Under the pieces are notes generated by a model, which was not told the origin of the DNA, made no database searches, and saw nothing but the letters and a program-made list of their open reading frames with translations. Below are positions 23 to 30,947 of a DNA stretch of 30,947 nt, one piece after another. A program made the position numbers and the translations under genes. Positions within the stretch are counted from its first letter, which is position 1. Each line of letters starts with the position of its first letter. Source of the DNA: a virus (lineage: Duplodnaviria; Heunggongvirae; Uroviricota; Caudoviricetes); the IMG/VR virus record IMGVR_UViG_2534682078_000030. One strand, given 5' to 3'.

Positions 23-1000
23 TGAACCGCCCCGGGTTTCCTGGAGAGTGTTTTATCTGTGAACTCAGGCTGCCAGATCATCGTTTCCGATGGAAGCATA
101 ATAAGCTTTTTCTGCTTCTGCCGGAGGAGTATGGCCCAGCCTTCCCAGCAATCGTCGATTGTTATACCAGTCCACCCACGTTAGTGTGGCCAGTTCCACT
201 TCTGCACGGTTTTTCCAGCTCTTACGGTGTATTACCTCCGCTTTGTAAAGACCATTGATGCTCTCAGCCATCGCGTTGTCATACGAGTCGCCTGTACTCC
301 CTGTTGATGCCAGTAATCCGGCTTCTTTTAGTCGCTCCGTATAGGCCAGTGACACATACTGAGAGCCTTTATCGCTGTGATGGATGGTGCCAGACGGACG
401 ACGGGCCCACAACGCCTGCTCCAGCGCATCCAGCACGAATGTCGTTTCCATAGACGATGAGACCCGCCACCCCACGATGTATCCGGCAAACACATCAATG
501 ATAAACGCCACATAGACGAAGCCCTGCCATGTGCTGACGTAAGTAAAATCAGCCACCCACAGCTGGTCAGGTCGTTCTGCCACGAACTGACGGTTTACGC
601 GGTCGCCTGCGGCAACGGCTTTCCGGCTGATGGTCGTACGGACCTTTTTACCCCGGAGAACACCGGCAAGTCCCATAACCGCCATGTTACTGCGGCGCAG
701 TTCACGATTTTCACGTTCCAGCTCTTTCAGACGCTGACGTTCAGCGCTGGTGAGCCCACCATCACCGCCCCCGGTATCCCGCTCATGCTGGCGAACCCAG
801 ACACGCAGAGTCTCCGGCGTACAGCCAATCTTTGGGGCAATGGAACAAATTGCCGCCCACTGTGAGTCATATTCATCCTGACTTTCCAGAACCATACGAA
901 TCGCCCGCTGACGGACTTCGGGGGAAAAACGAGTATTTTTAGTCATCCTGTTTACCTCTTTCTCAGGGAGTTTAGTCTCCAGGATTTCCGGGGCGGTTCA
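23..1000 (-). mobile_element. IS3-family insertion sequence (IS629/IS1203-like), copy A, 978 bp, internally deleted
   Basis: Termini match copy B: TGAACCGCCCCGGGTTTCC from 23 (right end, reverse orientation) and GGATTTCCGGGGCGGTTCA ending at 1000 (left end). It is 332 bp shorter than the 1310-bp copy B; the junction at 685/686 joins orfA codons ...RRSN to orfB codons MAVMG. Flanking triplets TGT (20-22) and TTC (1001-1003) are not a direct repeat. Confidence 0.85.
65..946 (-). CDS. IS3-family transposase, in-frame OrfA-OrfB fusion created by the internal deletion (293 aa)
   Basis: First 86 aa are identical to OrfA of copy B ([19 protein letters not shown]...RELRRSN) and the remaining 207 aa are identical to the C-terminal part of OrfB of copy B ([14 protein letters not shown]...NDDLAA). 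The programmed-frameshift window and OrfB N-terminus are missing. Confidence 0.8.
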
Positions 1001-2517: not shown

Positions 2518-3477
2518 ATGAAAATTTGTATCGACGACGGCTCCACCAACATCAAGCTGGCATGGACTGAGAACGGCGAACGCCGCAACGCCATCAGCCC
2601 GAACAGCTTCAAGTCGGAATGGTCTGCGCCGTTCGGTGGCACGCAGCCCGCGAACTACATGCTTGATGGCGTGCGCTATGGTTTTGATCCGGTCAGCGAT
2701 CGCTTTGTCCAGACGACCGACACGCAATACCAATACAGTGATGTGAATGTCATTGCCATTCATCACGCGCTGGTCAAATCAGGCATCACGCCACAGGAGG
2801 TGGATGTGGTTGTCACCCTGCCACTGAGCGAGTATTTCGACACAAACGCACAGCCGGACATAGCCAACATCAACCGCAAAAAAGCGAACGTTATGCGCCC
2901 GGTGGAGTACCAGAACGGCGAAGCATTCACTATCCGTAACGTGCGGGTTATGCCTGAATCCATTCCGGCTGGCTTTAAGGCACTGGCTGACATGAGTCCG
3001 TTTGAATCCCTGCTGATTGTGGATTTGGGCGGAACCACGCTGGATGTGGCAAAGGTTCAGGGGCAGCTGGCAGGTATCAGCCAGGTGTTTTGCGATCCAC
3101 ACGTAGGCGTTTCCCTGATGGCTGATGCCGTGCTGTCGGTGATGGCCACTAACGGTATGCGTACCAGTCACCACATCGCCAATACCATTATTGAGCACCG
3201 TCACGATGAAGCCTGGCTGCGCCAGCACATTCACAATGACGCGCATTACAACAGCCTGATGGCGGTTATTCGTGAAAAGGAGGAGACACTGAAACAACGA
3301 GTGATCCGCGCGCTGGCGGGTTTTTCCGGTTACGGGCGGGTGATGGTTGTCGGTGGAGGGGCGGAGATTGTGGCACCCGCTATCCGCGAAGCCTGCGGAG
3401 TTAATGCGACTTTCATCACGGACGGGGTGCCACATTTTGCTCTGGTTAATGGGCTGTACGCAATGAACAAGGAGTAA
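2518..3477 (+). CDS. parM: ParM/StbA-like actin-type plasmid segregation ATPase
   Basis: 319 aa; N-terminus ICIDDGSTNIKLAW...ISPNSFKSEW, then YSDVNVIAIHHAL, VMPESIPAG, LIVDLGGTTLD and VVGGGAEI align closely with my recollection of plasmid R1 ParM. SD AAGGAAAA precedes the ATG at 2518. Confidence 0.85.
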   Translation: MKICIDDGSTNIKLAWTENGERRNAISPNSFKSEWSAPFGGTQPANYMLDGVRYGFDPVSDRFVQTTDTQYQYSDVNVIAIHHALVKSGITPQEVDVVVTLPLSEYFDTNAQPDIANINRKKANVMRPVEYQNGEAFTIRNVRVMPESIPAGFKALADMSPFESLLIVDLGGTTLDVAKVQGQLAGISQVFCDPHVGVSLMADAVLSVMATNGMRTSHHIANTIIEHRHDEAWLRQHIHNDAHYNSLMAVIREKEETLKQRVIRALAGFSGYGRVMVVGGGAEIVAPAIREACGVNATFITDGVPHFALVNGLYAMNKE

Positions 3478-3481
3478 ACCA

Positions 3482-3793
3482 ATGACGACACCAACCAGAA
3501 GAATAAGTTTCTATCTGAAGCCAGCTGCCGTCAAGAACGAAGGAGAAGCATGCGCCTGGCTGGACAGCCTTACACCAGAAGCCCGCAAAAGCGGCCAACG
3601 CGTGGCTTTTCTGGCCGGGCTGGCACTTCTGAAGACGAATCCGGCAGAGGCTTACCGACTGGCCGCATGGGCTGATGATGAGATGTTACCTGTGACACAA
3701 ATCAGCTCAAAAAAGTTTGAAGCACAGTCTGCACCAGTGGCTAAGATAACCAGCCAGATGGCTGGGAATATCCGGGCGTTATTTCCTGAGTAA
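3482..3793 (+). CDS. parR: ParR/StbB-like centromere-binding adaptor
   Basis: 103 aa immediately after parM; RRISFYLKP...LDSLTPEARKSGQRVAFLAGLAL resembles the R1 ParR N-terminal ribbon-helix-helix region (RRTIAFKLNP...LDSIPQGERSRLNRAALTAGLAL). Confidence 0.7.
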   Translation: MTTPTRRISFYLKPAAVKNEGEACAWLDSLTPEARKSGQRVAFLAGLALLKTNPAEAYRLAAWADDEMLPVTQISSKKFEAQSAPVAKITSQMAGNIRALFPE

Positions 3794-6575: not shown

Positions 6576-8326
6576 CAGAACTCCATAACCGTGAAACGCT
6601 CGTTTTCTCCTTCGCCGCCAATTGGTTCGTTAATGACAGCAAGCATGGTTGCCCACGCAAGGTCGCCGTGGCTGATCCCCCTCGCGCGGTCCGTTTCGTA
6701 AGTGATAAAACCGCCCGGTGTTTTCACCTTACGCACGGCGTTAAAGGCCGCGACCAGCTCGCGTTCGGCGCGATCGTATTCCCACCGCCCGGCACGCATT
6801 ATTTGCAGCATTTTCAGTACCAGCGACCGTTTTGATGACAGCGTGAAGGTGTACGGAATAGCAGCAGGGAAAAACCGTTTCACTATCTGATAAACAGCCT
6901 CCCCGTTCCCGCCCGTCACATCAATGCCGATGTGTTCCACGTTGTAGCGACACGTGAACTCTTCAATGACTCTGGCCTGTTCTTCAAACTCCAGCCCCTG
7001 AACGCGTCGCGTCTCCACCGTTCGAAAACGGCCACCAGGAACAGCCGGAGGAACCACCACAGACACAGCGCCGCTGTCGCCGTTGCCACTGCTGCCGTTT
7101 GCGTCATACCCAATCCATACCGGACGATTCCCCATCGGGCGGGGAGCAAAAGGTTTCCAGTCTTTCCAGTCGTCGTATCCGTCAACACCGCAGCCAATCA
7201 GGATATTCAGGTTAAATGCCGATTCCCCTTCGCGGACAAACTCACACATATAGAGATTGAGGAACTCGTCTTCGGTGTTTTCATCACGAATTTCGTCGAT
7301 ATCGGTGTGTTTCCAGCCGTGATTAACCACATCTTCCAGCGTGACAATTTGCCGCCACGTCCGGTCAGGGCAGATAAGCCCGTTATGCAGCGTATTCCAG
7401 TCCACAGAAAAACGCCGGCGTTTATGCGTGGCCTTTTTCTCGTTCCAGCGGTCGCCGTTCCAGTAGGCGTATGCTTCGTGCGTTTCGGTGGATGGCGTGG
7501 AGAAGTAGGTGCGCCGCAGTCCGCTGAGGGTTGCCATAGCGCCAGCCACCTTGCGCAGTTCAGCAAAGCGACTGACCCAGAAAAATTCATCAAAATAAAA
7601 ATTGCCCGTATAGGACTGCGCCGACGCAGCAGAAGTGCCGAGAAAATGCAGCTCTGCGCCATTGGAGAGGATGATTTTATCGCCCCCTTTCAGCTCCACA
7701 TCAACTTCAGCCGCAGCCTTCTGAATAATGCTTTTAAACTGGAACGCCTGACGACGCGACGCAGACAAAAAAATCTGGTTACGCTGGTAAGGTTGCGCCA
7801 CATCGTCACGCAGCGCCATCAGCAGAGCTTCCTGTGCAAAATACCAGGTCGCCCCAATCTGTCGGGATTTCAGGATCATCCTGTTACGTATCCCGGCTTC
7901 CCTGCAAAGGGTCAGGGAGTCAAACCAGCCCCGCTGATGCCACTCCAGCCTGCTGATGATTTTTTCCCGCAGTGCGGAAATCTGTTCCGGCGTGAAATGA
8001 TTTTTGAGTTTTTTCGCCCGGCCTTTCTTTCCTGCGGCCATCACATCCGGATGGCCATCATGCAGCTTTTTAAGCTGCCGGGTCAGCAGGTCTATTTCCT
8101 TAAAGTCACCGCCTGTTTTATTCTGTTTTTCAGTAAGCTGGATGAGGCGCGCATCGATGGACTGCGTGACACGCTGCACGGGTGGCGTTTCATCCCACTG
8201 GTCGCGTTTTTTCCACGCATAAATCGTGTTCGGGTTTATTCCCATCAGACGTGATATTTCTGCGGGCGGATAACCCTGCCAGTAAAGTTGCCGCGCACGC
8301 TGGCGCACAAAAGCGTCCTGAATCAT
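6575..8326 (-). CDS. P: Terminase large subunit (P2 gpP family)
   Basis: 583 aa; divergent from the O-N-M-L operon across a 120-bp intergenic region, as in P2. Confidence 0.85.
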   Translation of the reverse strand: MIQDAFVRQRARQLYWQGYPPAEISRLMGINPNTIYAWKKRDQWDETPPVQRVTQSIDARLIQLTEKQNKTGGDFKEIDLLTRQLKKLHDGHPDVMAAGKKGRAKKLKNHFTPEQISALREKIISRLEWHQRGWFDSLTLCREAGIRNRMILKSRQIGATWYFAQEALLMALRDDVAQPYQRNQIFLSASRRQAFQFKSIIQKAAAEVDVELKGGDKIILSNGAELHFLGTSAASAQSYTGNFYFDEFFWVSRFAELRKVAGAMATLSGLRRTYFSTPSTETHEAYAYWNGDRWNEKKATHKRRRFSVDWNTLHNGLICPDRTWRQIVTLEDVVNHGWKHTDIDEIRDENTEDEFLNLYMCEFVREGESAFNLNILIGCGVDGYDDWKDWKPFAPRPMGNRPVWIGYDANGSSGNGDSGAVSVVVPPAVPGGRFRTVETRRVQGLEFEEQARVIEEFTCRYNVEHIGIDVTGGNGEAVYQIVKRFFPAAIPYTFTLSSKRSLVLKMLQIMRAGRWEYDRAERELVAAFNAVRKVKTPGGFITYETDRARGISHGDLAWATMLAVINEPIGGEGENERFTVMEF

Positions 8327-9340: not shown

Positions 9341-10393
9341 ATGAATCTGGTGATGTCAGATATTACCCGCAACAAGCTGGGTTGCTATATGGCGCAGCAG
9401 GCGTCGCTTAATAATATCCCGGTTTCTGCGCTGGTATCGCGATTTACCGTAGAACCCTCGGTGCAGCAGCGTTTTGAAAACGCCTCAAAGGAAAGCACCG
9501 AATTTACAAAAAGAATTAACGTGATCGGCGTGACCGACCAGAAAGGCGAAAAAATCCTCCTGGATACCACAGGACCGATTGCGCGCACGAATACCAGTTA
9601 TGACGGCACAAAACGCCGTAACCCGAATAACGTGGTTGATCTGAAAAACCGCAAATACCAGTGCGAACAGGTGAACTACGACACGTTTATTTCATATCCG
9701 CAGCTTGATGCCTGGGCGGCACATCCTGATTTTCAGTCCCGCATCAGCGCACAGATTGCCCGACAGGTGGCGCTTGACCGCATCATGATCGGTTTCAACG
9801 GCACGTCTCACGCGGATGAGTCCAACTTCAGCACCAACAAGCTGCTTCAGGACGTTAACGTGGGCTGGCTGGAGCACATCAGAACCGACGCCAGCGAACG
9901 CGTTATGAATGACGTGACGCTGACCTCCCGCAACATGGACAACACCGTGGCGCACGCGGGTAAGTATGCGAACGCTGATGCACTGGTACAGGACGCACGC
10001 TCATCCCTGCTGGATGAATGGCACAAGGAAGCTGACGACCTCGTGGTGATTATGGGGCGCAACCTGTTTAACTCGCTGCGTCTGCCCGTGCTGAACAGCA
10101 TCAGCGGCCAGAATCCCAATGCGGAATTACTTGCCGGGCAGCTCATCCTGTCATCGCGCACCATTGGCGGGCTGGGCGTGTTCCTTGCGCCGTTCTTCCC
10201 GGATGCAACGATGCTTATCACCTCGTTCAACAACCTGTCGATTTACTGGCAGAAAGGTTCAATGCGTCGCCTGATGAAAGACGAACCGGAATACAACCGC
10301 ATCGCCACCTACCAGTCCATCAATGACGCTTATGTCGTTGAAGACTATGGCAAGTGCGCGATGGTCACTGGCCTGAAGTTCGCCGACAGCTAA
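9341..10393 (+). CDS. N: Major capsid protein (P2 gpN family)
   Basis: 350 aa; motifs FTVEPSV, MLQDVNVGWL, YFPDAMLIT, DYVVEDY align with P2 gpN. SD AAGGAG precedes the ATG. Confidence 0.9.
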   Translation: MNLVMSDITRNKLGCYMAQQASLNNIPVSALVSRFTVEPSVQQRFENASKESTEFTKRINVIGVTDQKGEKILLDTTGPIARTNTSYDGTKRRNPNNVVDLKNRKYQCEQVNYDTFISYPQLDAWAAHPDFQSRISAQIARQVALDRIMIGFNGTSHADESNFSTNKLLQDVNVGWLEHIRTDASERVMNDVTLTSRNMDNTVAHAGKYANADALVQDARSSLLDEWHKEADDLVVIMGRNLFNSLRLPVLNSISGQNPNAELLAGQLILSSRTIGGLGVFLAPFFPDATMLITSFNNLSIYWQKGSMRRLMKDEPEYNRIATYQSINDAYVVEDYGKCAMVTGLKFADS

Positions 10394-19490: not shown

Positions 19491-20063
19491 CTATTTATAC
19501 AATACAACACCGCTCTTTTTAGTTATATATGTGCAGTTCGATGGTATATCTTTATTTATAAAAGACATTGCACCTATTTTTACATTATCCCCAATTTTAC
19601 GTGATAATCCAATGATGCAACAATTAGCTCCGATATCAACGTTACTACCAATTTTTACTCTTGAACCAGGCATGTCACCATCTATCTGTCCAATGGTAGT
19701 ATTCTGTCGTAACACCAGATTTTCACCAGCATCAACAGCAAAATGAACAACAATTCCAGCATGATGGGGAATTGTTAACCCTTTTCCAATATTTGCGCCC
19801 AATCCAATTTCACAACCAAATTTGTTAATTATTTTACTGTTTAACTTTTTGGCTGCTTTCTTATGTAATTTATTACCATTAATATACATTTCGTTAGCCA
19901 ACCGCCACCAGAAAAGGAAATTCCGGTTACGCTGTTTTTTCTCTCTTAAAAGCCTCCAGATATCCATACGTTTCCGCCGAATTACTTCATATTTCCAGAA
20001 GTTTTTTAAATTAGTAGAGTCCCCAAATAAAACAAAGTGAATTGCCATTAAGTAAGACAGCAC
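19491..20063 (-). CDS. Hexapeptide-repeat (left-handed beta-helix) acetyltransferase, cargo gene at the Z/fun position
   Basis: Repeated [LIV]-G-x-x-x-x hexads (IGLGANIGKGLTI, VKIGSNVDIGANCCIIG, KIGDNVKIGAMSF); AT-rich. Likely GTG start at 20063 with SD AAGGAG (the tracked ORF starts at 20096). Confidence 0.7.
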   Translation of the reverse strand: MLSYLMAIHFVLFGDSTNLKNFWKYEVIRRKRMDIWRLLREKKQRNRNFLFWWRLANEMYINGNKLHKKAAKKLNSKIINKFGCEIGLGANIGKGLTIPHHAGIVVHFAVDAGENLVLRQNTTIGQIDGDMPGSRVKIGSNVDIGANCCIIGLSRKIGDNVKIGAMSFINKDIPSNCTYITKKSGVVLYK

Positions 20064-20114
20064 GATAATCTCCTTAATTATTATTTCAGACCACACATAT
20101 TATAAGGTTAAGAG

Positions 20115-20143
20115 ATTATAAAATCCTGTTGTTTGTTATTCAA
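20115..20143 (-). promoter_or_regulatory. Candidate sigma70 promoter TTGAAT-17-TATAAT for the acetyltransferase
   Basis: On the minus strand: -35 TTGAAT (20143-20138), 17-bp spacer, perfect -10 TATAAT (20120-20115), about 50 bp upstream of the start codon. Confidence 0.5.
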
Positions 20144-20219
20144 AAACAATTTTCTGAGAAGGACATACAACAGCAAGTCGCCAGTCACCTTCATCAGGAA
20201 ATTGGCGACATACGTTAAA

Positions 20220-20714
20220 TCAGAGCAGCCCCTTAACTGAGCTGGTCGCGCTATTAAGGGATGATGTCACCTTATCTTTGAAGCCGGACAACATATCGCT
20301 GAACGATGAGGATTGCAGGCGCTCCCGCAAATCCTCATCACAGCGTTCAAGAGTCAGTGAAAATTCTATCTTTTTCGCCTTACCGTAGCGATCAAACTCG
20401 GAGCGGGTCGTATTCGTTCCGGTCAGGACATACATGCCGTAAATCTGCCCGACACCATCAATCAGAGGCCAGGGGCGTCCTGTATATGCCTGCGTGGTCA
20501 GCAGAGACAGCGACACTTCGCCACCTGTAATTTCAGGATAAAGCACGCCGGAAAGCACGATGCGATCATCACCTGCACCGATATACTGCCAGCTTGCTGA
20601 ACGGTTAACACGTTCATTTTTCACATGCCGCCAGCTTTTGTTTTGCTGTAACTGCTGATGCGGCAGTGTGCGCAGCTCAAAAACAAACATGCCGTAGATC
20701 ATCATCATGACCAT
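20220..20714 (-). CDS. U: Tail protein (P2 gpU family)
   Basis: 164 aa; YGMFVFELRTLPHQQLQQNKSWRH resembles the gpU N-terminus; directly downstream of the tape measure gene. Confidence 0.85.
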   Translation of the reverse strand: MVMMMIYGMFVFELRTLPHQQLQQNKSWRHVKNERVNRSASWQYIGAGDDRIVLSGVLYPEITGGEVSLSLLTTQAYTGRPWPLIDGVGQIYGMYVLTGTNTTRSEFDRYGKAKKIEFSLTLERCDEDLRERLQSSSFSDMLSGFKDKVTSSLNSATSSVKGLL

Positions 20715-20720
20715 GACTCC

Positions 20721-23537
20721 TCAATCTTTATCGTAAAAACTGCCACGTCCGGCACGGGCGCGCCGTTCCATCTCTGCCCTGACCATTTCACCGACCAGTT
20801 TCGCCAGTTCGCGGGGATTCTGCGTAACAACGTTATGCAGATGAACATGAATTTCACCGCCAAATCCGGAGGCAACAGGCTCCCGGTTACGGGAAGTTAC
20901 AGGAACTGATGCCACTGGAGATCGTATGGCCTCCGCCACCGGGCGGGAGCTGGCCGCAACAACAGGGACCAGCGCCGGAGGCAGCGGAGCCGGGACCACG
21001 GGTGTGATATTAATTGCGGGGGCAGGCTTACTGACCTGCGCAATCTTCCGCTCCTGCCACTCCCCACGAACAGCAAGTGCGCGGGGCAGGTTCTTAAAGA
21101 CAATATCGCCAGGGCCAATGCGTTTTTTCGTCTCATCAACCAGCTTACCTGTGTTATCAGCAATTTTGCTGAGTCTGCGTAGCGTCCCGGTATTGCTGTC
21201 TGTGAGCGGTTTGTTGTCTTTGGGTTTATCACCTCCGGTGCCATTGCCATTTTCCACAGGCTTCGGCGGATTGATTTTCGCCAGGTCCCCCTGAAGTAAG
21301 GCAACCTTATCCTGAAGAATGGCCGCACGCTGTGCGTCTTCGATTTTCTTGCGCGCCCTTTCCGCTTCATCCGGAAGGACGCCAAGTTTTTCAAGTATCC
21401 ACGCCAGCGTATCCAGTAGCATTTTTGCAGGTGTCAGAACAAGTTGTAACGCACCGCCAAGAACGTTACCGAATATCTCGCCAGCACTGGTACATTTATC
21501 CAGCGTTTCCTTGCTGGACTCCATCGGTGACAGCAGCGATTTAAACCAGTTAAACACCTGGCTGATCCCGCTTCCGATTGCGTCAAAAACAGGGCCAAAC
21601 CGTTCAAAGGTTTCACGCAACGGGTTCAGCCTTTCCATAATCCCGCTGAACACCCCGGCAAAAAATGCCCTGATGGGATCCCAGTATTTCCAGATAAGGA
21701 CGGCAGCTCCGGCAAGCGCAGCCACGATAAGACCAACCGGACTGAACAGCGCCCCGATAGCGCCTCCCAGTAAAGAAACGGAACCCGTCACCATTCCCCA
21801 TAGTGCTGGCAGGACCCTGACAGCATTCATTGATCCGGTCAGGAGAGAAAAACCAAGACGCAGTTTTGCCAGCGGACCAGCAAGCACACCAATAGCCAGC
21901 GACAACGAGCCAACCGTTGCAGTCATTGCCAGCAACGCACCGCCTGCTATCAGTAGCTGGCGCGTCAGTGCCGGATGGGCCTGCGCCAGCGCCGTCACCC
22001 TTGATACCACCCGCGTGAGCCACTGCGTGACAGAACGCAGCGGACCGTCAATCAGATCTGCAATGCGGATGCGCAACCCTTCCCATGCACTGCCGAGTGA
22101 TTTCAGATCGCCGTCAAGGTTGTTGGCCATAACCTTTGCTGTGCGTTCAGCCTCACCGCGCGCGCCTTCAAGTTCTTTTCTCAGTTTGGGTAAGGAACCG
22201 TCACCCGCTGCATCAACGAGCGCCATAAACGATGTGAAAGCCTCTTCTCCGGCAATGTCCTTAAAGAACGATACCCGGTCAACTTCCCCGTATTTGCGGG
22301 TGGCTTTATAAAGGTCGGCCAGCACATCCTCCATCGGGCGCATTTTGCCGTTCGCGTCAGAGACTGCCACACCAAGCTCTTTCAGCGCCTCTGCTGCCGC
22401 CTTTGGCGGTGATGCCAGACGAGCCAGGCTGGCACGCATTGCCGTCCCGGCATCACTTCCCCTGATACCCATATTCGCCAGCACGCCCGCCATCGCTGCG
22501 GCCTGCTCCAGCGATATTCCCAGCTTGCCCGCCACCGGACCTGCATATTTCATGGTTTCGCCCAGTGCGCGAAGGTCAGTGTTGGTACGGGTAAACGCTG
22601 CGGTGAGCGTGTCACCGACCCGGTCCATCTGGTCGGCAGAAAGGCCGAACTGCGTCAGGATGTTTGAGCCAATATCCGCCGTCTCGCCGAGATCCATACC
22701 GCCAGCCGTTGCCATGCTCAGCACACCGGGAAGCGCAGCCTGAATGGCCTGTGGTGTGAAGCCAGCCATTGCAAGAAATGCCTGGCCACTGGCGGCATCG
22801 CCTGCGGTGAACTGCGTTTCAGAGCCAAGTTTTAACGCCTGCTCACGCAGCGCCTTAAACTGTGGGCTGTTCTGGTCGATTCGCGTCAGCGCCTGAACGC
22901 GGGACATCTCTTTCCCGAACCCGATCGCAGGCTGCAAAAAACGCCCGGCAGCATAGCCGCCCGCCGCTGCCGCACCAATTGCCAGCGCACCACCTGTTTT
23001 CAGTTTTCCCGCGGTTTCCTGCGCGCGCGAATACCGCTCACGCGCCCGCGTTACACGCGCAAGCGCCTGCCGTTCGCGTTCAAGCTGGTTGTTGTACTGT
23101 TCGGTGCGTCTGATGGCCTGCTGGATGGTGTTATCGCTGCCTGTCAGGGAAATGCCGTGGCGTTTCAGTTCTCCGCCAAGTTCCCGCATTTTCTGAATTT
23201 CCCGTGTGCGCGATTCATTCAGGCGTTCAAGCCGGGTGCTTAACTGCTGCATCAGCTTTTGTTGTTTTTCGCTGAGCACTGTACCCGTGCGTTGTAACTG
23301 ATTAAGGGCGTTAAGCTGGCGTCGTGCTTTCACGATACCCGCATCCGCTTTACTGACAGCGTCGCGGGCGCGCTCAAATGAACGCGCCTGACGCTCGAGA
23401 TTTTTGATCGCCCCCTGCGTTCGCTGGATGGAGTCACCAAACTGCCCCATCAGGCGGCGGGCGTTTTCGGCAGGCCGGGTCAGCCTGTCAACGGCGCTGA
23501 AAGCGACCCGGATATCAAGAGTCTTCATTATCTGCAT
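20721..23537 (-). CDS. T: Tail tape measure protein (P2 gpT family)
   Basis: 938 aa, coiled-coil N-terminal half and Ala/Gly-rich hydrophobic central region; follows E/E'. Confidence 0.9.
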   Translation of the reverse strand: MQIMKTLDIRVAFSAVDRLTRPAENARRLMGQFGDSIQRTQGAIKNLERQARSFERARDAVSKADAGIVKARRQLNALNQLQRTGTVLSEKQQKLMQQLSTRLERLNESRTREIQKMRELGGELKRHGISLTGSDNTIQQAIRRTEQYNNQLERERQALARVTRARERYSRAQETAGKLKTGGALAIGAAAAGGYAAGRFLQPAIGFGKEMSRVQALTRIDQNSPQFKALREQALKLGSETQFTAGDAASGQAFLAMAGFTPQAIQAALPGVLSMATAGGMDLGETADIGSNILTQFGLSADQMDRVGDTLTAAFTRTNTDLRALGETMKYAGPVAGKLGISLEQAAAMAGVLANMGIRGSDAGTAMRASLARLASPPKAAAEALKELGVAVSDANGKMRPMEDVLADLYKATRKYGEVDRVSFFKDIAGEEAFTSFMALVDAAGDGSLPKLRKELEGARGEAERTAKVMANNLDGDLKSLGSAWEGLRIRIADLIDGPLRSVTQWLTRVVSRVTALAQAHPALTRQLLIAGGALLAMTATVGSLSLAIGVLAGPLAKLRLGFSLLTGSMNAVRVLPALWGMVTGSVSLLGGAIGALFSPVGLIVAALAGAAVLIWKYWDPIRAFFAGVFSGIMERLNPLRETFERFGPVFDAIGSGISQVFNWFKSLLSPMESSKETLDKCTSAGEIFGNVLGGALQLVLTPAKMLLDTLAWILEKLGVLPDEAERARKKIEDAQRAAILQDKVALLQGDLAKINPPKPVENGNGTGGDKPKDNKPLTDSNTGTLRRLSKIADNTGKLVDETKKRIGPGDIVFKNLPRALAVRGEWQERKIAQVSKPAPAINITPVVPAPLPPALVPVVAASSRPVAEAIRSPVASVPVTSRNREPVASGFGGEIHVHLHNVVTQNPRELAKLVGEMVRAEMERRARAGRGSFYDKD

Positions 23538-24053
23538 TCCCGCTGCGAAGTGCCGCCCGCTCGCGCCAGCTAACCACTTCGCCGGGCGTCATCATGAAGA
23601 TTTCGGCGGGCGACCAGTTAAAAATGGCGGCAATATCCGCCACCAGATCTTCGATGTGCTCAAAGCACACCAGGGTGATTACGCTGCCGTCTCCTGCACG
23701 CTCTTCGCGCCAGAGTCTGGCTCGCTCATAAAATTTACAGCCACTGCGCACAACTGAATAAAATCGCGTGACGACATTTTTTTAATCATCACTTCATCCA
23801 GTCGTGGCGAGGTCACGCGAGGCAACAGCGTAAACATGGTATCCGCTTTCAGATTCAGCACATCAGACAGCGACAGACCACGCAGGGATCCAGCCTGCTC
23901 AATAGCCCCGGTGATCTCCACATACGTGATTTTTTCGCCACCACGCTCAATTGGTCGGGTCAGTTTTACGCCACGTTCGACAGCCATATCCTCACCTGCC
24001 GTCACATCACCCGCCACGGTGTTATTCCGGGTTTCAGTATCGATGTCTTTCAT
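23515..24053 (-). CDS. E': Tail assembly chaperone E+E' made by programmed -1 frameshift
   Basis: The -1 frame is open from the A7 run to 23515 and encodes ...FMMTPGEVVSWRERAALRSG, resembling the conserved E' C-terminus; overlaps the start of T as in P2. Confidence 0.6.
23679..24053 (-). CDS. E: Tail assembly chaperone (P2 gpE family)
   Basis: 124-aa ORF upstream of T; contains the A7 slippery run (plus-strand T7 at 23777-23783). Confidence 0.7.
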   Translation of the reverse strand: MKDIDTETRNNTVAGDVTAGEDMAVERGVKLTRPIERGGEKITYVEITGAIEQAGSLRGLSLSDVLNLKADTMFTLLPRVTSPRLDEVMIKKMSSRDFIQLCAVAVNFMSEPDSGAKSVQETAA

Positions 24054-24108
24054 CAGTTGTCTCCTTTTCAGTCAGAGGCGACGCACTGCGCCGCCTGCAT
24101 ATTACTTA

Positions 24109-24621
24109 TCAGCCAAGCCCAAGCGCGGAACGGATACGGTCAGGCACAATGTCCTTGCCGTCCTTCCGGTAAATGAAGTTCAGCAGGTCAATCTCCCACA
24201 ACGGGCGATCGTTAACACTCAGCTTGTAGTAGGTGTTTTTAATGGCGTAAGTGTGTGATGTGGCTTCGCCCTGTTTGGCTTCCCCCATATCAATTTCCGT
24301 CACACGCCCGCGCATCTCGATTTCATACAGATCGCTTTCTGCATCGGTGTAGTATTCACCCACAAAACGCAGCAGCGTGCCGTCAATCGTGCCGCCATAC
24401 TTAAGGAACAGCGCACGAACAGCTCCCCCCATGACAAAACTCGCATCAAGCGCGGAGTCGTCCAGACCGAGATCAATACTTACCGCACCCATCATGCCGC
24501 CCCCCCGGTAGCTGTCGGTTTTGCGCGTCAGTTTGGGCAGAGTGACGGACGTCACCTTACCCACTTCGTTTTCACCATCCACAAACAGCGTAAAAAAGCG
24601 AAGATGTTTTGGTACAGCCAT
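24109..24621 (-). CDS. FII: Tail tube protein (P2 gpFII family)
   Basis: 170 aa; VTLPKLTRK...YRGGGMMGA...DLGLDD matches the gpFII N-terminal pattern. Confidence 0.9.
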   Translation of the reverse strand: MAVPKHLRFFTLFVDGENEVGKVTSVTLPKLTRKTDSYRGGGMMGAVSIDLGLDDSALDASFVMGGAVRALFLKYGGTIDGTLLRFVGEYYTDAESDLYEIEMRGRVTEIDMGEAKQGEATSHTYAIKNTYYKLSVNDRPLWEIDLLNFIYRKDGKDIVPDRIRSALGLG

Positions 24622-24836
24622 CAGGCACCTCCCAGCACCGCAAATGCGGGTTCAAAGTATTCATCAGTAAACGTCTGGTAAAGCTCCATGTCTTCCAGTG
24701 GCGGAACGGGCGTATATTTGTAGCGAATACGCACACGCCCCTGACGTAAATCCGTGGTGCTGTTATCCACCACGTCATACCAGCACTCCGCGCCAATCAG
24801 TTTCCCGGCAGTAACCAGTGAATCCAGTTTTGCCCT

Positions 24837-24839
24837 GAT
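24837..24839. repeat. Target-site duplication GAT, left copy
   Basis: Triplet immediately 5' of the IS terminus TGAACCGCC; identical to 26150-26152. Confidence 0.8.
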
Positions 24840-24893
24840 TGAACCGCCCCGGAAATCCTGGAGACTAAACTCCCTGAGAAAGAGGTAAACAGG

Positions 24894-25220
24894 ATGACTA
24901 AAAATACTCGTTTTTCCCCCGAAGTCCGTCAGCGGGCGATTCGTATGGTTCTGGAAAGTCAGGATGAATATGACTCACAGTGGGCGGCAATTTGTTCCAT
25001 TGCCCCAAAGATTGGCTGTACGCCGGAGACTCTGCGTGTCTGGGTTCGCCAGCATGAGCGGGATACCGGGGGCGGTGATGGTGGGCTCACCAGCGCTGAA
25101 CGTCAGCGTCTGAAAGAGCTGGAACGTGAAAATCGTGAACTGCGCCGCAGTAACGATATCCTTCGCCAGTCTTCCGCTTATTTTGCGAAGGCGGAGTTCG
25201 ACCGCCTCTGGAAAAAATGA
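24894..25220 (+). CDS. IS3-family transposase OrfA (helix-turn-helix, leucine zipper)
   Basis: 108 aa, [41 protein letters not shown]..., which I recognise as IS629/IS1203 OrfA. Confidence 0.9.
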
Positions 25221-26107
25221 TGCCACTGCTGGATAAGCTGCGTGAGCAGTACGGGGTCGGACCGGTATGCAGCGAACTGCATATTGCCCCGTCAACGTAT
25301 TACCATTGTCAGCAACAGCGACATCATCCGGATAAACGCAGTGCCCGTGCGCAGCACGACGACTGGCTGAAGAGAGAGATACAGCGCGTATACGATGAAA
25401 ATCATCAGGTGTACGGTGTGCGTAAAGTCTGGCGTCAGTTGTTACGGGAAGGAATCAGGGTGGCCAGATGTACAGTGGCACGTCTCATGGCGGTTATGGG
25501 ACTTGCCGGTGTTCTCCGGGGTAAAAAGGTCCGTACGACCATCAGCCGGAAAGCCGTTGCCGCAGGCGACCGCGTAAACCGTCAGTTCGTGGCAGAACGA
25601 CCTGACCAGCTGTGGGTGGCTGATTTTACTTACGTCAGCACATGGCAGGGCTTCGTCTATGTGGCGTTTATCATTGATGTGTTTGCCGGATACATCGTGG
25701 GGTGGCGGGTCTCATCGTCTATGGAAACGACATTCGTGCTGGATGCGCTGGAGCAGGCGTTGTGGGCCCGTCGTCCGTCTGGCACCATCCATCACAGCGA
25801 TAAAGGCTCTCAGTATGTGTCACTGGCCTATACGGAGCGACTAAAAGAAGCCGGATTACTGGCATCAACAGGGAGTACAGGCGACTCGTATGACAACGCG
25901 ATGGCTGAGAGCATCAATGGTCTTTACAAAGCGGAGGTAATACACCGTAAGAGCTGGAAAAACCGTGCAGAAGTGGAACTGGCCACACTAACGTGGGTGG
26001 ACTGGTATAACAATCGACGATTGCTGGGAAGGCTGGGCCATACTCCTCCGGCAGAAGCAGAAAAAGCTTATTATGCTTCCATCGGAAACGATGATCTGGC
26101 AGCCTGA
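25217..26107 (+). CDS. IS3-family transposase OrfB (DDE catalytic domain)
   Basis: 296 aa in the -1 frame relative to orfA, normally expressed as an OrfAB fusion by frameshifting at the A run. Confidence 0.9.
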
Positions 26108-26149
26108 GTTCACAGATAAAACACTCTCCAGGAAACCCGGGGCGGTTCA

Positions 26150-26152
26150 GAT
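26150..26152. repeat. Target-site duplication GAT, right copy
   Basis: Triplet immediately 3' of the IS terminus ...GGGCGGTTCA. Confidence 0.8.
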
Positions 26153-27275
26153 GGCACTGATAACATCCTTCACGTTCGCAGGCGTCAGTGGACTGTCGAT
26201 GGTTTCAAACTGCGCTTCCGCAATTGAATCAGCAAGCACCTGTGCGGTTCGGGTATACACCTCAAAGATGTAGGCGTTCGTTTCCGGTGTGCGGTTGCCC
26301 CAGAAGCGGAACCCGTTGCGACGAATAATGGTCGTGATTTCTTTGTTGTTGAGGCTGTTGGCATCGCTGTCTTCGGCCTGCAACGACCAGAACACATGCC
26401 TCGACATCCCCAGCACATTTTTAACCGGAACGTTGGACAGTGATTTGTGCCAGCCCTGCTCATGGTCAATGTACGCACGAAGGCCGCACGCATAGGCAGG
26501 CGCGGGGAACGTTTCGTTTTTGCCACTTTTCGGGTTGTAGGCGATGAAGTCCGGCCATAAGAGCATCACCTCACGTTCGTTGAATTTCTGGCGGTAGGTA
26601 ATCGCCTCAGCCATCGTGTTACAGCCGTGACATGAGGCATACACAAACGCGCGCAGTTTACCCGCAATCACGCACAGGGATTTTGTTACCGCCTCCGTGT
26701 CCAGCTCCGGCGCGGCCAGAATACGCGGACGGTATCCGATGCTTTCATCCTGCTCTGCAACAAGCAGCGCATACATCCCCGTATAGCTGCCGTCAGATTC
26801 AGAACCACCGATAACCAGTTGATCCTGCGTTTTTCCGTCTTCTTCTTTATGTTCAGCCACGCGAACGACGATCACCTTTGTGCTCACCTGGTCTGCGATG
26901 GCCTTAAGCGCACGATAAAGCGTCCCCGTTGTTCCGCATTTTCCCAGCACGTCATTGACGCGGGTCAGCAGTGTGGGCTTGTTCAGCGGGAACAGCTCCG
27001 CGTCCGCATCATCCGCCGTTGCCACGATACCGATAACACTGGAATCAACATCATTAATCGCTGTTACCAGGTCGGTACTTTCCGTAACACGGGCACCATG
27101 AAAACGAGTTTCACTCATAGCTTCAGCCCCTTGTATCCGTTAAATGATTCGGCAACAATCATCACCCACCACGCGCGTAATCTCACCCCTGCGCCGTTCT
27201 CCCGCCCCGGCGACAACAAAAAGCAGTAACCCCCTCCGCACGCACATGCGACCATGCCGCACAGGGAGGGAGCAG

Positions 27276-28384
27276 ATGACCGACACCACCATGCAATTGC
27301 TCAGTCAGGGCACAGACCCCGTGAAAATGCCGGATTTTGATATTCTCGCGGAGGGTAAAACGCTGTCAGGCGTGGCAGAGCGCCTGATGAGCCTGTCACT
27401 GACCGACAACCGGGGATTTGAGGCGGACCAGCTCACCATCACGCTGGATGATGCGGATGGTCAGTTGCAGCTACCGCCACGGGGCGCGCGCCTGACGGTT
27501 CTCATTGGCTGGAAAGGAGAACCGCTGACAGAAAAAGGCACTTACATTGTTGATGAAATCGCTCACGAAGGACCGCCGGACAGGCTGACTGTTTCAGCCA
27601 GAAGCGCAGATTTTCGGGATGAATTTAACGTTAAACGTGAGGTGTCCTGGCATGATGTGACCGTTGAGCGTGTGGTATCCGCCATCGCTCATCGGTATGG
27701 TCTGAAACCGCAAATCAGCGAAATGCTGATGGATATCGAAATCGACCACGCCGACCAGACCGAAGAAAGCGACATGTCCTTCCTTACGCGCATGGCGGAA
27801 ATGCTGGGCGCAATCACCACGGTAAAAAGAGGTAATCTGTTATTCATCATGCCCGGCGGTGGCGTGAACGCACAGGGCCAGCCGTTGCCCTCGTTCGCCA
27901 TCACACGCAGCAGCGGCGATCGCCATCAGTTCCGCATTGCTGACCGCGAAGCGTATACGGGGGTACGCGCTTACTGGCTTGATCTTAATTACGGGAAAAA
28001 GAAAAAGTCAGCGTGAAACGCCGCAAACCGTCAAAACCAAAAAAGGAGAAAAGCAGCAGCCGGGAAGGCGACTATATGGAAGGTGCGGAAGGCAACGTGT
28101 TTGTGTTACGCAAAACTTATCAGAACGAGCAGGCAGCAAGACGTGCAGCGGCGGCAAAGTGGCAGCAGCTACAACGCGGAGCCGCATCATTCTCCATCAC
28201 ACTGGCGCATGGACGTGCAGAACTCTACCCCGAAATGCATGGCACGGTAACAGGATTTAAAAGCGAGATTGATAATCAGGACTGGATTATTGCAAAAGCC
28301 GAGCACACCATTGATAACAGCGGCTTTACCACGCAGCTTGAGCTTGAGGCAAAAATCCCGGAATGGATAGCAGAAACAGAGTGA
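27276..28384 (+). pseudogene. D: Tail protein D (P2 gpD family), split by a -1 frameshift in GGGAAAAAGAAAAAG (27993-28007)
   Basis: N part (to 28016) has SLSLTDNRGFEADQLTITLDDADGQL and SARSADFR; C part (from 28013) has REGDYMEGAEGNVF and GFTTQLELE; both are collinear with P2 gpD. ATG at 27276 is preceded by GGGAGGGA. Could equally be a homopolymer sequencing error. Confidence 0.6.
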
Positions 28385-28546
28385 GCAACTTAAATGTATT
28401 AACTCAGAACGGATCAACACACTCACAACATAGAGTCAATATAGCTGCTCGCTTTGTTCCAGCAAGGATGCCTATTTCTAAGGAAAAACAGAGCAGAAAC
28501 ATATGGTGTTTTCCTACCTGACATCAGGGGTGGTAAGAATCATGCT

Positions 28547-28574
28547 TTGATAACCAATTGATAACTATTATTAT
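28547..28574 (+). promoter_or_regulatory. Candidate sigma70 promoter TTGATA-16-TATTAT for the 500-aa cargo gene
   Basis: -35 at 28547-28552 and -10 at 28569-28574, about 35 bp upstream of the ATG at 28610; AT-rich context. Sequence-only prediction. Confidence 0.4.
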
Positions 28575-28609
28575 ATTAATCTAACACCATTGACATAGTT
28601 GAGGTTTGA

Positions 28610-30112
28610 ATGAACAAAAAGCTGTATTTATTCCCAGACTCAAACATTTTTCTACAATGCAAGGACTTGACGCAGGTAAATTTTTCCGAGATTACTGCTT
28701 GTGATGAAGTATGTATCATTATTACAAGGCCCATTCAGCAAGAGATTGACCGCCAGAAAGGGCAAGGTAATTCCCGCCTATCCAAAAAAGCAAGGAAGGC
28801 TGCTAGCCTATTTAATCAAGTAGTTGATTCAACTGACATGACTCTTGTTATTCGTGAACGCTCGCCGCGAGTTTTTCTTACCATGGATCTAAGCCTGAAA
28901 CCATGTGAACAGTTATCTGAACAATTGGATTATCAGGAGGCCGACGATCGTTTTGTTGGTATTGCGGCAGGGTATTGCGCTGACGATCCAGATTCGGAGG
29001 TGGCAATCATTACCAATGATAGCGGTCCACGTTTTTCAGCAATAAAACATAATATAATCTGCTATAAAGTGCCTTCTTCATGGTTGCTTCCTGCTGAGCC
29101 AGATGAAAAGGATAAACAAATTAAATTGCTGGAAGCTAAGCTGAAGCAATTCACTCAGTCTATGCCCGATTTCAGCATTAAAGTAGCCGATGACGAGCAA
29201 TTAAATATTGTACTTCCTTATTATACAGCTTTATCTGAATATGAAGTTGATAATTTGCTTTGTCAACTAACGGATGCATTCCCATTGGTTACAAACTTTG
29301 ACAATGAACAAACTACCCCACAATCACTAGAAAAAATCATCAAGTCATTTAGTCAACAGGAGTATTTCCCTGTATCAGCAGATGATATTTCTCTTTATAA
29401 AGAAAAACATTATCCACTTTGGAAAAAGCAGTGTGAAGAAATACTGAAAAACTGTCATACTCATATTAATCCGAAGGCAATAAAATACCCGCTGTCGTTT
29501 TTATTACAAAACACAGGTTATACTATCGCTGAACGTGCTGTGGTAACATTTACAGCAAAAGGAGATTTTCGTCTGTGTGGATTTAATTGGGAGATAATGG
29601 AAGAGCTGACTGAAAGCAAAAGGATTGACCTACCTTCAGCCCCTACCGCCCCCAAAGGAAAATGGCGTAGTGTATGTGGCGTAACAGAAAGAATGCCTTA
29701 CGCTGGGGGAGCTTTGGAAACACCGCTATCCAGTATAATTTCAAAAGAAATTGGTCCTTTGTTATCTCTTACTCCAACAGAAAGGGATAAAAACGATTTT
29801 TATTATAAAGAAAAGAGAAATGAGCCAGTTCAAGTTGTATCGCTGGAATGCGAAGAGTGGCGTCATCAAGTCAAAGAAGAAATATTCCCGTTGTTCGTAT
29901 ATACAGCCAACAAACCAAAGAAAGTGAATGGTGCAATTGAGGTGAGAGTTGATGCAAATAACCTTACCAATCCGGTCATTAAAACATTTAAATTAAAAAT
30001 AACTATAGAAGAACATAGTGCATTTTCAACCATAACAGAAATGGTGCAGACATACATTCAAGAGCAGAAGAAAAGACAGAAAAGTTCTATTAGCGCACAA
30101 ATCAAAACATGA
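28610..30112 (+). CDS. 500-aa protein with N-terminal PIN-like nuclease domain and uncharacterised C-terminal region; candidate phage-defence effector
   Basis: Long ORF with SD GAGG 9 nt upstream; AT-rich codon usage unlike the flanking phage genes. N-terminus LYLFPDSNIFLQ...IIITRPIQQEIDRQ...KKARKAASLF...VAIITNDSGP has PIN-like spacing of acidic residues. No Walker A or HEPN motif seen. Confidence 0.6.
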   Translation: MNKKLYLFPDSNIFLQCKDLTQVNFSEITACDEVCIIITRPIQQEIDRQKGQGNSRLSKKARKAASLFNQVVDSTDMTLVIRERSPRVFLTMDLSLKPCEQLSEQLDYQEADDRFVGIAAGYCADDPDSEVAIITNDSGPRFSAIKHNIICYKVPSSWLLPAEPDEKDKQIKLLEAKLKQFTQSMPDFSIKVADDEQLNIVLPYYTALSEYEVDNLLCQLTDAFPLVTNFDNEQTTPQSLEKIIKSFSQQEYFPVSADDISLYKEKHYPLWKKQCEEILKNCHTHINPKAIKYPLSFLLQNTGYTIAERAVVTFTAKGDFRLCGFNWEIMEELTESKRIDLPSAPTAPKGKWRSVCGVTERMPYAGGALETPLSSIISKEIGPLLSLTPTERDKNDFYYKEKRNEPVQVVSLECEEWRHQVKEEIFPLFVYTANKPKKVNGAIEVRVDANNLTNPVIKTFKLKITIEEHSAFSTITEMVQTYIQEQKKRQKSSISAQIKT

Positions 30113-30355
30113 GGGTGTACTCAAATAATACAATGCTATAGTAAATCTATAAGTGCATAACTATTTCCTGATCTTTTCCCAAAATAGATGACAGGATAAA
30201 AAACATTCCAATCTTTTACAGGCTTTGGATAAATCGTATCAAAGCCTATTTCTTCAAGAGTTAAATCACCGCTTTTCGCTCGAAACGGACTGGCTGTTGG
30301 AGTATGAGCCAGAACAACTTAGAATAGCCCCTGCACTACGTTAAGGGAGGTCGCT

Positions 30356-30616
30356 ATGTTCCGTTGTCCGCTTTGTGGCGCATCTGCCCGTATCCGCACC
30401 AGTCGTCCGGAAAATGATTCAAACACCGTGCGGCAAAAGTATTACCAGTGTAACAATCTGGAATGCGGCGTATGCTTCTCAACACTGGAAGCTTTCCATA
30501 AATTCACATCAAAACACGCCTCCGGCGTTCACTCTTCAGAAGATATCCCGTGGCATGATCTGCCAGCTTCACACAGGGGAAACAATCAGATGAGCTTGCC
30601 TTTACCTCAGAATTAA
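30356..30616 (+). CDS. ogr: Late gene transcriptional activator, Ogr/Delta zinc-finger family
   Basis: MFRCPLCGASARIRTSR...YYQCNNLECGVCF matches the C-x2-C...C-x4-C pattern and N-terminus of P2 Ogr (MFHCPLCQHAAHARTSR...YHQCQNVNCSATF); SD GGGAGG upstream. Confidence 0.85.
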   Translation: MFRCPLCGASARIRTSRPENDSNTVRQKYYQCNNLECGVCFSTLEAFHKFTSKHASGVHSSEDIPWHDLPASHRGNNQMSLPLPQN

Positions 30617-30676: not shown

Positions 30677-30889
30677 ATGGTCGGAGGGAATACCCGAAGG
30701 CCAGATGTGGAAAGGCCCCGGAAAACATCTCTGTTTAACCGAGGCCCTAACCGCATTACCTTGACAAGTGAAAGGTTAGCGCCTCTCCGGAAAAGGAGCA
30801 AGTGCTATGTCGCAAAAATCGCTTACGACCATCACGTTCTGCGTGACGGCAATCCTCATCATCTGGATGTTGCACGGTTCGCTGTGTGA
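30677..30889 (+). CDS. Possible mok-like overlapping reading frame of the hok locus
   Basis: 70-aa ORF overlapping the hok-like gene in another frame, as mok does in hok/sok loci. No independent support. Confidence 0.3.
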   Translation: MVGGNTRRPDVERPRKTSLFNRGPNRITLTSERLAPLRKRSKCYVAKIAYDHHVLRDGNPHHLDVARFAV

Positions 30890-30947
30890 AATACGGATGA
30901 GCTTCTGGGGAGCGGAGTTTGCGGCGTTCTTACAGTGTAAGCAGTAA
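30807..30947 (+). CDS. Hok/Gef-family type I toxin (small membrane peptide)
   Basis: 46 aa MSQKSLTTITFCVTAILIIWMLHGSLCEIRMSFWGAEFAAFLQCKQ: one transmembrane segment followed by SLCEIR and EFAAF, the Hok/PndA family signature. SD AAGGAG 8 nt before the ATG. The stop codon is the last triplet of the window. Confidence 0.7.
   Translation: MSQKSLTTITFCVTAILIIWMLHGSLCEIRMSFWGAEFAAFLQCKQ

Follow-up and report, generated by a model that had tools for sequence, protein, structure and literature searches.

What is a 500-residue, nuclease-like protein doing between tail gene D and the late-gene activator ogr of a P2-like prophage? The question is raised by IMG/VR virus record IMGVR_UViG_2534682078_000030, a stretch of 30,947 nucleotides (nt) from a tailed virus that we call the window. 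In this stretch, the D-ogr interval is an AT-rich island that turns out to be a cassette, bounded by inverted repeats and carrying one cargo gene, in a defective P2-like prophage. We read the cargo gene as a single-protein anti-phage nuclease of the abortive-infection type and put the probability of this reading at roughly 0.6; any particular trigger or RNA target would be rated much lower. What the analysis shows is the PIN identity and fold of the product, its conserved acidic residues, a fixed two-part architecture, the solitary nature of the gene, its mobility and its association with defence loci.

A PIN_4 domain joined to a conserved C-terminal region

Gene D stops at 28384 and ogr begins at 30356; the interval has only one long open reading frame (ORF), at 28610..30112 on the plus strand, encoding 500 amino acids (aa). 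The GC content is 0.34-0.43 over 28350-30300, compared with 0.50-0.60 (about 0.53) in the late genes on both sides. An AT-rich island holding a single ORF, as the original prediction described it from the letters of the sequence, is therefore what the interval contains. RefSeq names the product only as 'PIN domain-containing protein' (WP_001035742.1), and this accession is absent from indexed papers. The gene has the following parts:

28547..28574, plus strand: sigma-70-like promoter candidate, TTGATA-16-TATTAT, matching the consensus at 10/12 positions
28601..28604, plus strand: Shine-Dalgarno-like GAGG, read from the sequence, 5 nt before the ATG
28610..29089, plus strand: PIN_4 domain, residues 1-160 of the 500-aa protein, with catalytic candidates D10, E45, D112 and D137
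29090..30112, plus strand: C-terminal region of about 340 aa and stop codon, comprising a helical linker, an alpha/beta unit, a helix pair, a beta-sandwich and a terminal helix

Independent expression had been proposed on account of the promoter and the Shine-Dalgarno motif. Both motifs are present, but promoter-like sites occur in the AT-rich stretch at chance level (7 found versus 6.4 expected from shuffled sequence), and a promoter belonging to the gene itself is plausible in the sense of being consistent with the sequence. No intrinsic terminator was found 3' of the ORF.

By sequence profile and by modelled fold, the N-terminal domain is a PIN domain. The Pfam family PIN_4 (PF13638) matches residues 10-151 with an E-value of 4.5e-8 and 33.9 bits, against a cut-off of 21.9, and the same family is precomputed on most homologues. 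The predicted fold is the Rossmann-like alpha/beta/alpha arrangement of PIN domains and matches the PIN ribonucleases (RNases) SMG6, Nmd4 and VapC. In an alignment of 167 full-length relatives, mostly less than 50% identical to one another, D10 is kept in all 160 non-gap sequences, E45 in 164/167, and D112 and D137 in 167/167; threonine or serine at position 135 is conserved too. Such near-invariance points to purifying selection on the active site, and the domain is probably a metal-dependent endoribonuclease. The predicted PIN-like N-terminus, its catalytic Asp10 and the expectation of conserved acids among homologues are all borne out. One proposed acidic motif, CADDPDSEV, falls away: this stretch is variable, and the third conserved acid is instead D112 in 'EADDRFVG'. 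Neither profile nor fold searches place the protein in a characterised non-defence family. The matched SMG6/EST1A and Nmd4 act in the mRNA decay of eukaryotes, have unrelated domains around the PIN domain and share only 13-24% identity, and the likeness is one of catalytic chemistry, not of biological role.

The C-terminal region, modelled alone, gives a mean predicted local distance difference test score (pLDDT) of 85 and a predicted template-modelling score (pTM) of 0.73. In the model, a helical linker is followed by a small alpha/beta unit and a long helical hairpin, and then by a macroglobulin/Ig-like beta-sandwich and a terminal helix. As had been suspected, the region belongs to no recognisable family and lacks NTPase motifs: it has no match in Pfam, NCBIfam or PADLOC, a marginal and uninformative one in PHROGs and none in sequence searches of the PDB, and no NTPase domain appears by Pfam, model secondary structure or fold matches. 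Its structured parts nevertheless come close to the PIN domain in conservation, with a mean column conservation of 0.42-0.47 versus 0.53 in the PIN domain, and ten residues are invariant or nearly so in the 167 relatives (Y263, W271, N301, G303, P345, P348, C414, R418, H419 and N451). A set of invariant residues of its own argues for a second functional site, which could bind a ligand or partner or be regulatory; the beta-sandwich region may thus have an active or binding site besides that of the PIN domain. The span of residues 263-451 (window 29396-29962) includes the strand motif 'LECEQWRH'.

This two-part architecture is fixed across a large family. A word-indexed search returned 52 clusters, nearly all of 470-520 aa, and with the C-terminal region as the sole query, an exhaustive HMMER search found 842 representatives at 50% identity. 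Among the best 150 of these, the C-terminal region starts after about 160 residues in full-length-sized matches, short matches look like N-terminal truncations, and no other effector domain is fused to the region. One match of 745 aa is an apparent gene-call fusion with a membrane protein. When five unusually long representatives were tested, four had PIN_4 in front, the fifth being P0073.

The family is sporadic and horizontally spread. Scanning one genome per species (about 100,000 species) with a search seeded by two conserved peptide motifs gave 35 loci, in Alpha-, Beta-, Gamma- and Deltaproteobacteria, Chloroflexi, Planctomycetota, Nitrospira, Gemmatimonadota, Acidobacteria, Latescibacterota, Poribacteria and one Peregrinibacteria genome. 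This pattern bears on whether the protein could be an ordinary enzyme of RNA metabolism, or another non-conflict enzyme, carried by chance, or else a decaying gene that has no function here. PIN_4 domains do occur in housekeeping RNA-processing proteins, and the host prophage is defective. Yet so few loci among so many species, with clearly horizontal spread, a low GC content, an ORF that is intact and retains the invariant catalytic residues, and a systematic link with mobile and defence loci make this very unlikely.

In an all-against-all comparison of ORFs within 2.5 kb of the gene at 41 loci, no conserved neighbour, partner or antitoxin gene was found, so the gene behaves as a solitary unit. 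The top neighbour 'cluster' in these loci was discarded as an artefact, an antisense ORF inside the PIN gene. The solitary state matters for another explanation, in which the gene protects nothing from phages and is a selfish toxin, killing cells that lose the cassette or its carrier, or serving competition between elements. PIN domains are best known as VapC toxins, the gene travels on mobile cassettes, prophages and conjugative elements, and VapBC pairs lie near it in three loci. VapC, however, has about 130 aa and always comes with an upstream VapB, whereas the window protein is four times that size, has a large conserved extra region and is accompanied by no conserved antitoxin-sized gene in any of the 41 loci. 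Since a stable single protein offers no obvious post-segregational mechanism either, we regard a selfish toxin as unlikely.

Defence loci, known systems and a proposed mode of action

Where do the homologues live? In P2-like prophages the family holds at least four variable loci: D-ogr (the window), S-V, A-portal and int-att. The Rahnella homologue lies at the S-V tail-gene junction of a P2-like prophage; that of Enterobacter asburiae occupies the classic gpA-portal defence hotspot of another, adjoining an AAA_15/21 ATPase; and in a 186-like prophage the gene is found between int and the attachment site. In Pectobacterium it is carried by an integrative and conjugative element (ICE) with a type IV secretion system. 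A homologue in a metagenomic island adjoins a Gabija-like pair of AAA_15/21 and UvrD genes, with integrase fragments and a zeta toxin present. An AAA_15/21 ATPase adjoins the gene in only 2/41 loci (L004 and L007), and none does in the window.

A broader neighbourhood set, comprising 272 ORFs within 6 kb at 31 genome loci, includes type I, II and III methyltransferases, specificity subunits, MmeI- and Eco57I-type enzymes and an Mrr-like PDC-S02 protein. It also includes AAA_15/21 and HerA-type ATPases, SocA/Panacea antitoxin domains, integrases and transposases. This frequency of defence and mobile neighbours probably lies far above background. The suggestion that homologues would be found near defence genes is thus upheld by the P2 hotspots, the Gabija-like pair and type I restriction-modification (R-M) operons.

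The R-M operons call for a closer look. In four loci (L011, L037, L039 and L021) the gene stands directly 3' of hsdS in a type I operon, with hsdR downstream in L011 and L037; the window and the other enterobacterial loci have no such location. The module, found in Chloroflexi, Gemmatimonadota, Binatia and an unassigned metagenome, reads hsdM-(small gene)-hsdS-PIN500-(variable gene or VapBC). Its HsdM is nearly identical in all four loci, which implies one mobile module rather than four independent events, and recent transfer of the whole R-M/PIN unit between phyla.

Such an arrangement could mean that the protein guards restriction. It would monitor the type I R-M complex or sense anti-restriction proteins, and the RNase would fire when restriction is disabled, by analogy with PrrC/EcoprrI and PARIS/Ocr. 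Such a guard would still be a defence gene, only with its trigger specified. The position after hsdS and before hsdR recurs in loci from different phyla, and R-M components are the commonest neighbours overall. We nevertheless think such a guard unlikely, as no R-M genes adjoin the copies of E. coli, Rahnella, Enterobacter and Pectobacterium, the four embedded cases amount to the one module, and the ABC-ATPase domain that defines PrrC/RloC is absent by Pfam. PrrC and RloC do share with four loci of the family an RNase gene between hsdS and hsdR, and by analogy their logic, a latent RNase unleashed on infection, would apply here; they differ in having an ABC-ATPase and another nuclease domain, neither of which is in the window protein, and the E. 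coli copy is not linked to R-M.

Coming back to a single-protein anti-phage nuclease, there are clear precedents for PIN domains in defence. DS-3 and DS-5 defend E. coli and require their catalytic residues (PMC13092281), and HEC-03 is another PIN system shown to defend E. coli (10.1101/2024.01.29.577857). Close in kind is DS-3 (WP_022645725.1), a PIN ribonuclease consisting of one protein without antitoxin, for which auto-inhibition until infection has been proposed (PMC13092281). Description and accession set the two proteins apart: DS-3 has 340 aa and a PIN domain that is divided over the N- and C-termini, whereas the window protein has 500 aa, with a contiguous N-terminal PIN_4 domain followed by a tail of 340 aa. 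HEC-03 and DS-5 likewise use a PIN effector and were found in defence loci by 'guilt by embedding' or machine learning. HEC-03 needs an ABC ATPase and DS-5 a DUF5830/AcrIF4-like protein, in contrast to the partnerless family of the window, and the domain of DS-5 is PIN_12 rather than PIN_4.

Altogether, the protein lies outside every named system tested, with no PADLOC match, VapB-type partner, ABC-ATPase partner or fused ATPase; this agrees with the original prediction, which could assign it to none. The proposal that it is a candidate anti-phage gene is itself supported by the PIN identity, the conserved acids and the defence-rich contexts.

How might it work? RNA as the substrate, auto-inhibition, sensing through the C-terminal region and the defence phenotype are what we infer. 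The N-terminal PIN_4 domain would act as a metal-dependent endoribonuclease. In an uninfected cell, the fused C-terminal region, with its helices and beta-sandwich, would keep this domain inactive, because a PIN RNase that was constitutively active would poison the cell and there is no antitoxin gene. An infection cue (a phage protein or other ligand) would bind the site of invariant residues C414, R418, H419, N451, N301 and Y263, and the PIN domain would be released or assembled as a result. Once active, it would cut an essential RNA (tRNA, rRNA or mRNA), and phage production would stop.

Several points weigh against this reading. The support drawn from neighbouring genes is by association and therefore indirect, and the R-M-linked loci contribute a single mobile module to it. 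None of the 5027 models in PADLOC-DB 2.0.0 yields a family at E <= 10, and the protein does not appear in the accessible part of the DefensePredictor supplementary text. Among PIN-like domains there are some that cut DNA. The beta-sandwich match, being generic, offers no clue to a ligand. Effector-domain swapping, a feature of many sensor-effector defence families, is not seen among the best 150 representatives. Finally, the host prophage is decaying, with an insertion sequence (IS) in A, another in the sheath gene and a frameshift in D, and because of this decay an intact ORF in 59 near-clonal genomes says little about selection.

If the protein does defend, it adds a broadly distributed single-gene RNase system whose sensing region has no known relative. 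Comparable defence candidates now number in the hundreds. In this one, the few invariant residues are directly mutable and would provide a compact model of how a nuclease is restrained and then released on infection. Because O111 and related Shiga-toxin-producing E. coli carry the gene, it is also relevant to phage therapy and to prophage dynamics in these pathogens.

Inverted-repeat cassettes at D-ogr and beyond

How did the gene come to lie here? The 1971-bp interval is present at an identity of at least 99% in 59/5426 complete E. coli genomes, namely O111 and related Shiga-toxin-producing strains, and nothing close to the island turned up in the cultured-phage collection. The D-ogr junction is empty in 719 E. 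coli genomes, where it measures 42 bp (GAGCAACTTAGAATAGCG) and has one ACTTAGA copy. Compared with this empty junction, the island is a discrete 1.92-kb insertion at 28395-30316. The outline given in the original prediction, an AT-rich interval between two genes, is correct in composition but understates what is there, as the island is more than spacer and has inverted-repeat ends and a 7-bp duplication:

27276..28384, plus strand: tail gene D, left flank; frameshifted, as overlapping ORFs 27144-28016 and 28013-28384
28388..28394, no strand: left 7-bp direct repeat, ACTTAAA; looks like a target-site duplication, with a single copy at the empty junction
28395..28471, plus strand: left inverted-repeat end, starting TGTATTAACTCA; nhmmer E 2.9e-9 (match 28396-28471) against a profile built from 11 cassette ends, of which it is one
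30263..30316, minus strand: right inverted-repeat end, with the degenerate tip TGAGCCAGAACA; nhmmer E 3e-6; aligns with the right ends from O157 and enterotoxigenic E. coli (ETEC)
30317..30323, no strand: right 7-bp direct repeat, ACTTAGA, partner of the left copy
30356..30616, plus strand: ogr late-gene activator, right flank; RefSeq WP_000488103.1, an ogr/Delta-like zinc finger

The ends are imperfect inverted repeats of about 80-90 bp. Other cargo cassettes, at D-ogr, S-V and G-FI, have left ends homologous to that of the island, and the 3' segment of the right end (CGAGCGAAAAGCGG...TTCTTGAAGAAATAG) is common to the window and the Rahnella PIN cassette. For the O157 cassette, the ends align with a score of 51, compared with 20 +/- 3.9 for shuffled sequences, and 0/300 shuffles reach 51.

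Other cargo is found at the same junction. In one cassette with homologous ends the cargo is a protein of 379 aa that has a SEC-C zinc motif at its N-terminus (L013:5697-7474); the left end of this cassette occurs at an identity of at least 99% in 80 genomes, in one of which the cargo was read. A further alternative is a 340-aa protein (L014:5697-6980) with weak HEPN_RiboL-PSP similarity (E 1.6e-4, below the Pfam cut-off). Comparing junctions thus shows D-ogr to be a variable cargo locus, empty in the 719 genomes and filled differently elsewhere, as had been suggested for it. The insert also has the traits of a moron, the horizontally acquired unit that had been proposed: it stands between conserved phage genes, is missing from the empty junctions, deviates in GC content and has a promoter-like site and Shine-Dalgarno motif.

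The empty junctions also bear on the idea that the gene benefits the phage. An RNase of this kind might degrade host or competitor RNAs (guide or signalling RNAs) as a counter-defence, or process phage transcripts. Carriage by a temperate phage among late genes, beside the late activator ogr, would fit, and anti-defence genes too occur in variable phage loci. Against it, the empty junctions imply that the gene is dispensable for the phage, the promoter candidate is sigma-70-like and not in an Ogr-type late promoter context, and many homologues are chromosomal, in ICEs or in R-M operons, across many phyla and far from any phage. We judge a phage-beneficial role quite improbable.

Two other interpretations of the ends were rejected. 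An IS256 origin had been proposed from an IS256-family transposase abutting the end element in E. coli M15, but the other IS copies have their start at L052:3589, which is 80 bp further in and lies downstream of the end element, and genomes in which the IS is multi-copy still have a single end element. A role as structured RNA or terminator was dismissed as well, given ordinary folding energies (z +0.8 to -1.8) and no match in Rfam.

The end profile reaches well beyond the window. It finds both ends around the Rahnella PIN gene and in 9 IMG/VR contigs carrying the identical E. coli island. In the Pectobacterium ICE (L003), ends at 7439-7529 and 9736-9787 lie one on each side of the PIN gene and in the same orientation, which suggests tandem or nested cassettes, the upstream one with two uncharacterised genes (244 and 272 aa). 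The first of these ends is a near-perfect palindrome with an 11-bp stem (GTGTTAGCTCAGATTTGAGCTAACAC). Among 120 viral contigs retrieved from IMG/VR with a 23-nt motif (L053-L172), 78 have convergent end pairs enclosing 0.8-6 kb; examples in P2-like contigs are L086:457-1950, L166:2423-3556 and L099:1230-2579. Cassettes were placed at the following sites, and at G-FI (Z/fun) in addition:

S-V: 5, plus Rahnella
D-ogr: 3
A-portal: 2-3
Adjacent to int: 2
Adjacent to U: 2

Intact cassette tips read TGTATTAGCTCA...TGAGCTAATACA, and 7-bp duplications are seen at six distinct sites (CATAAAT, GATTAAG, TATAACG, CCTGAGG, CATCATT and A[AC]TTAGA). Site-specific duplications together with intact tips are a signature of transposition rather than of homologous exchange. 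The 82 cassettes, that is, the 78 and four reference loci, contain 134 ORFs in 98 unrelated protein clusters. None of the 134 ORFs matches the IS256 family, the sole transposase tested, no general scan for transposase domains having been run. The 598-aa ORF of L085, considered as a transposase, is an ORC/Cdc6-type AAA ATPase. With terminal inverted repeats, a target duplication, several sites and no IS256-family match inside, the cassettes resemble miniature inverted-repeat transposable elements (MITEs) or mobile insertion cassettes (MICs).

What the cassettes carry is informative about the PIN gene. Representatives of the cargo clusters match 201 PADLOC models at E <= 1e-8, including Shedu SduA, PDC-S06, PDC-S15, PDC-S31, mad3 and CBASS-type endonuclease effectors; many defence genes are thus among the regular cargo of the vehicle that bears the PIN gene. 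Nor are the cassettes confined to P2-like phages, as the end element also occurs in an unrelated prophage of E. coli MN06021. There, a left-end element (L051:3501-3587) is followed by a 331-aa hypothetical gene, beside the integrase of a yfdP-yfdR type prophage.

The inverted repeats themselves are not new, having been annotated twenty years ago around the Z-region. In GenBank records AJ512676 and AJ512680 (the 'Z-region' of P2-EC30 and P2-EC46), a 'left/right inverted repeat' is annotated exactly where the profile matches, with E-values of 1e-9 to 1e-15 against the annotated repeats of L184 and L185. The two records reportedly belong to Nilsson et al. 2004, Mol Biol Evol 21:1. The ends in the window are the same elements as these repeats, which in the records surround foreign AT-rich ORFs with promoters of their own. 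The difference lies in position: the records concern the G-FI (Z/fun) site, whereas the insertion here is at D-ogr and further cassettes lie at S-V, at A-portal and beside int or U, as well as in an ICE and a prophage of an unrelated kind. The repeats go unmentioned in the recent surveys of P2 hotspots consulted, one of which speaks of a 'recombination process still to be elucidated' (10.64898/2026.02.27.708500).

This leads to a bolder, joint proposal, which we hold tentatively and at somewhat less than even odds. The PIN-plus-sandwich proteins would form a widespread family of single-gene immune nucleases with a new sensor pocket (C414/R418/H419/N451), and the Z-region repeats would be the ends of non-autonomous transposable cassettes, recognisable by the 7-bp duplication, that seed defence genes into P2-like loci, ICEs and other prophages. 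If so, transposable cassettes would supply the process behind P2 hotspot turnover (10.64898/2026.02.27.708500). The ends provide a testable hypothesis for how hotspots are refilled, namely transposition in trans. In practical terms, ends that a profile can recognise mark cargo at several P2-like hotspots and allow a cheap, annotation-free harvest of candidate defence genes.

The host prophage and its decay

The host element is a defective P2-like prophage, because IS copies interrupt gene A and the sheath gene. The first copy lies at the start of the window (65-946, minus strand), within replication gene A; in O111 strain 11128, where this gene is broken in the same way and the integrase is shortened, it is annotated as IS1203. 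The second is an IS3-family-type ORF pair (108 aa and 296 aa) at 24894-26107 on the plus strand, inside the sheath gene FI, which is intact at 1185 bp in strain 11128.

Tail gene D, named as a VgrG/Pvc8-family or late control D protein in RefSeq, does end at 28384 as predicted, but in the window one base is missing from the run GGGAAAAAGAAAAAG near 28001-28006, which shifts the frame (A5GA5, compared with A5GA6 in O111 11128 and CDE6306). Either the deletion is genuine and has made D a pseudogene, or the homopolymer was misread in sequencing.

Compared with the P2 gene order, the FI-FII-E-T-U tail block (19491-27118) is inverted and lies on the minus strand. As ETEC4070 and CDE6306 also have a minus-strand sheath gene beside D, the inversion may be a feature of the lineage. 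A serine O-acetyltransferase gene (19491-20096, minus strand) occupies the G/U junction, which corresponds to the site of Z/fun cargo. The gpA-portal hotspot of this prophage is filled by ParM- and StbB-like plasmid partition genes (2518-3793, plus strand), and the same ParM/StbB-like pair adjoins the PIN homologue in the Enterobacter prophage (L004). At the prophage end, 3' of ogr, a 46-aa ORF of the Hok/Gef toxin family occupies 30807-30947 on the plus strand, and in strain 11128 the next gene is the chromosomal ihfA.

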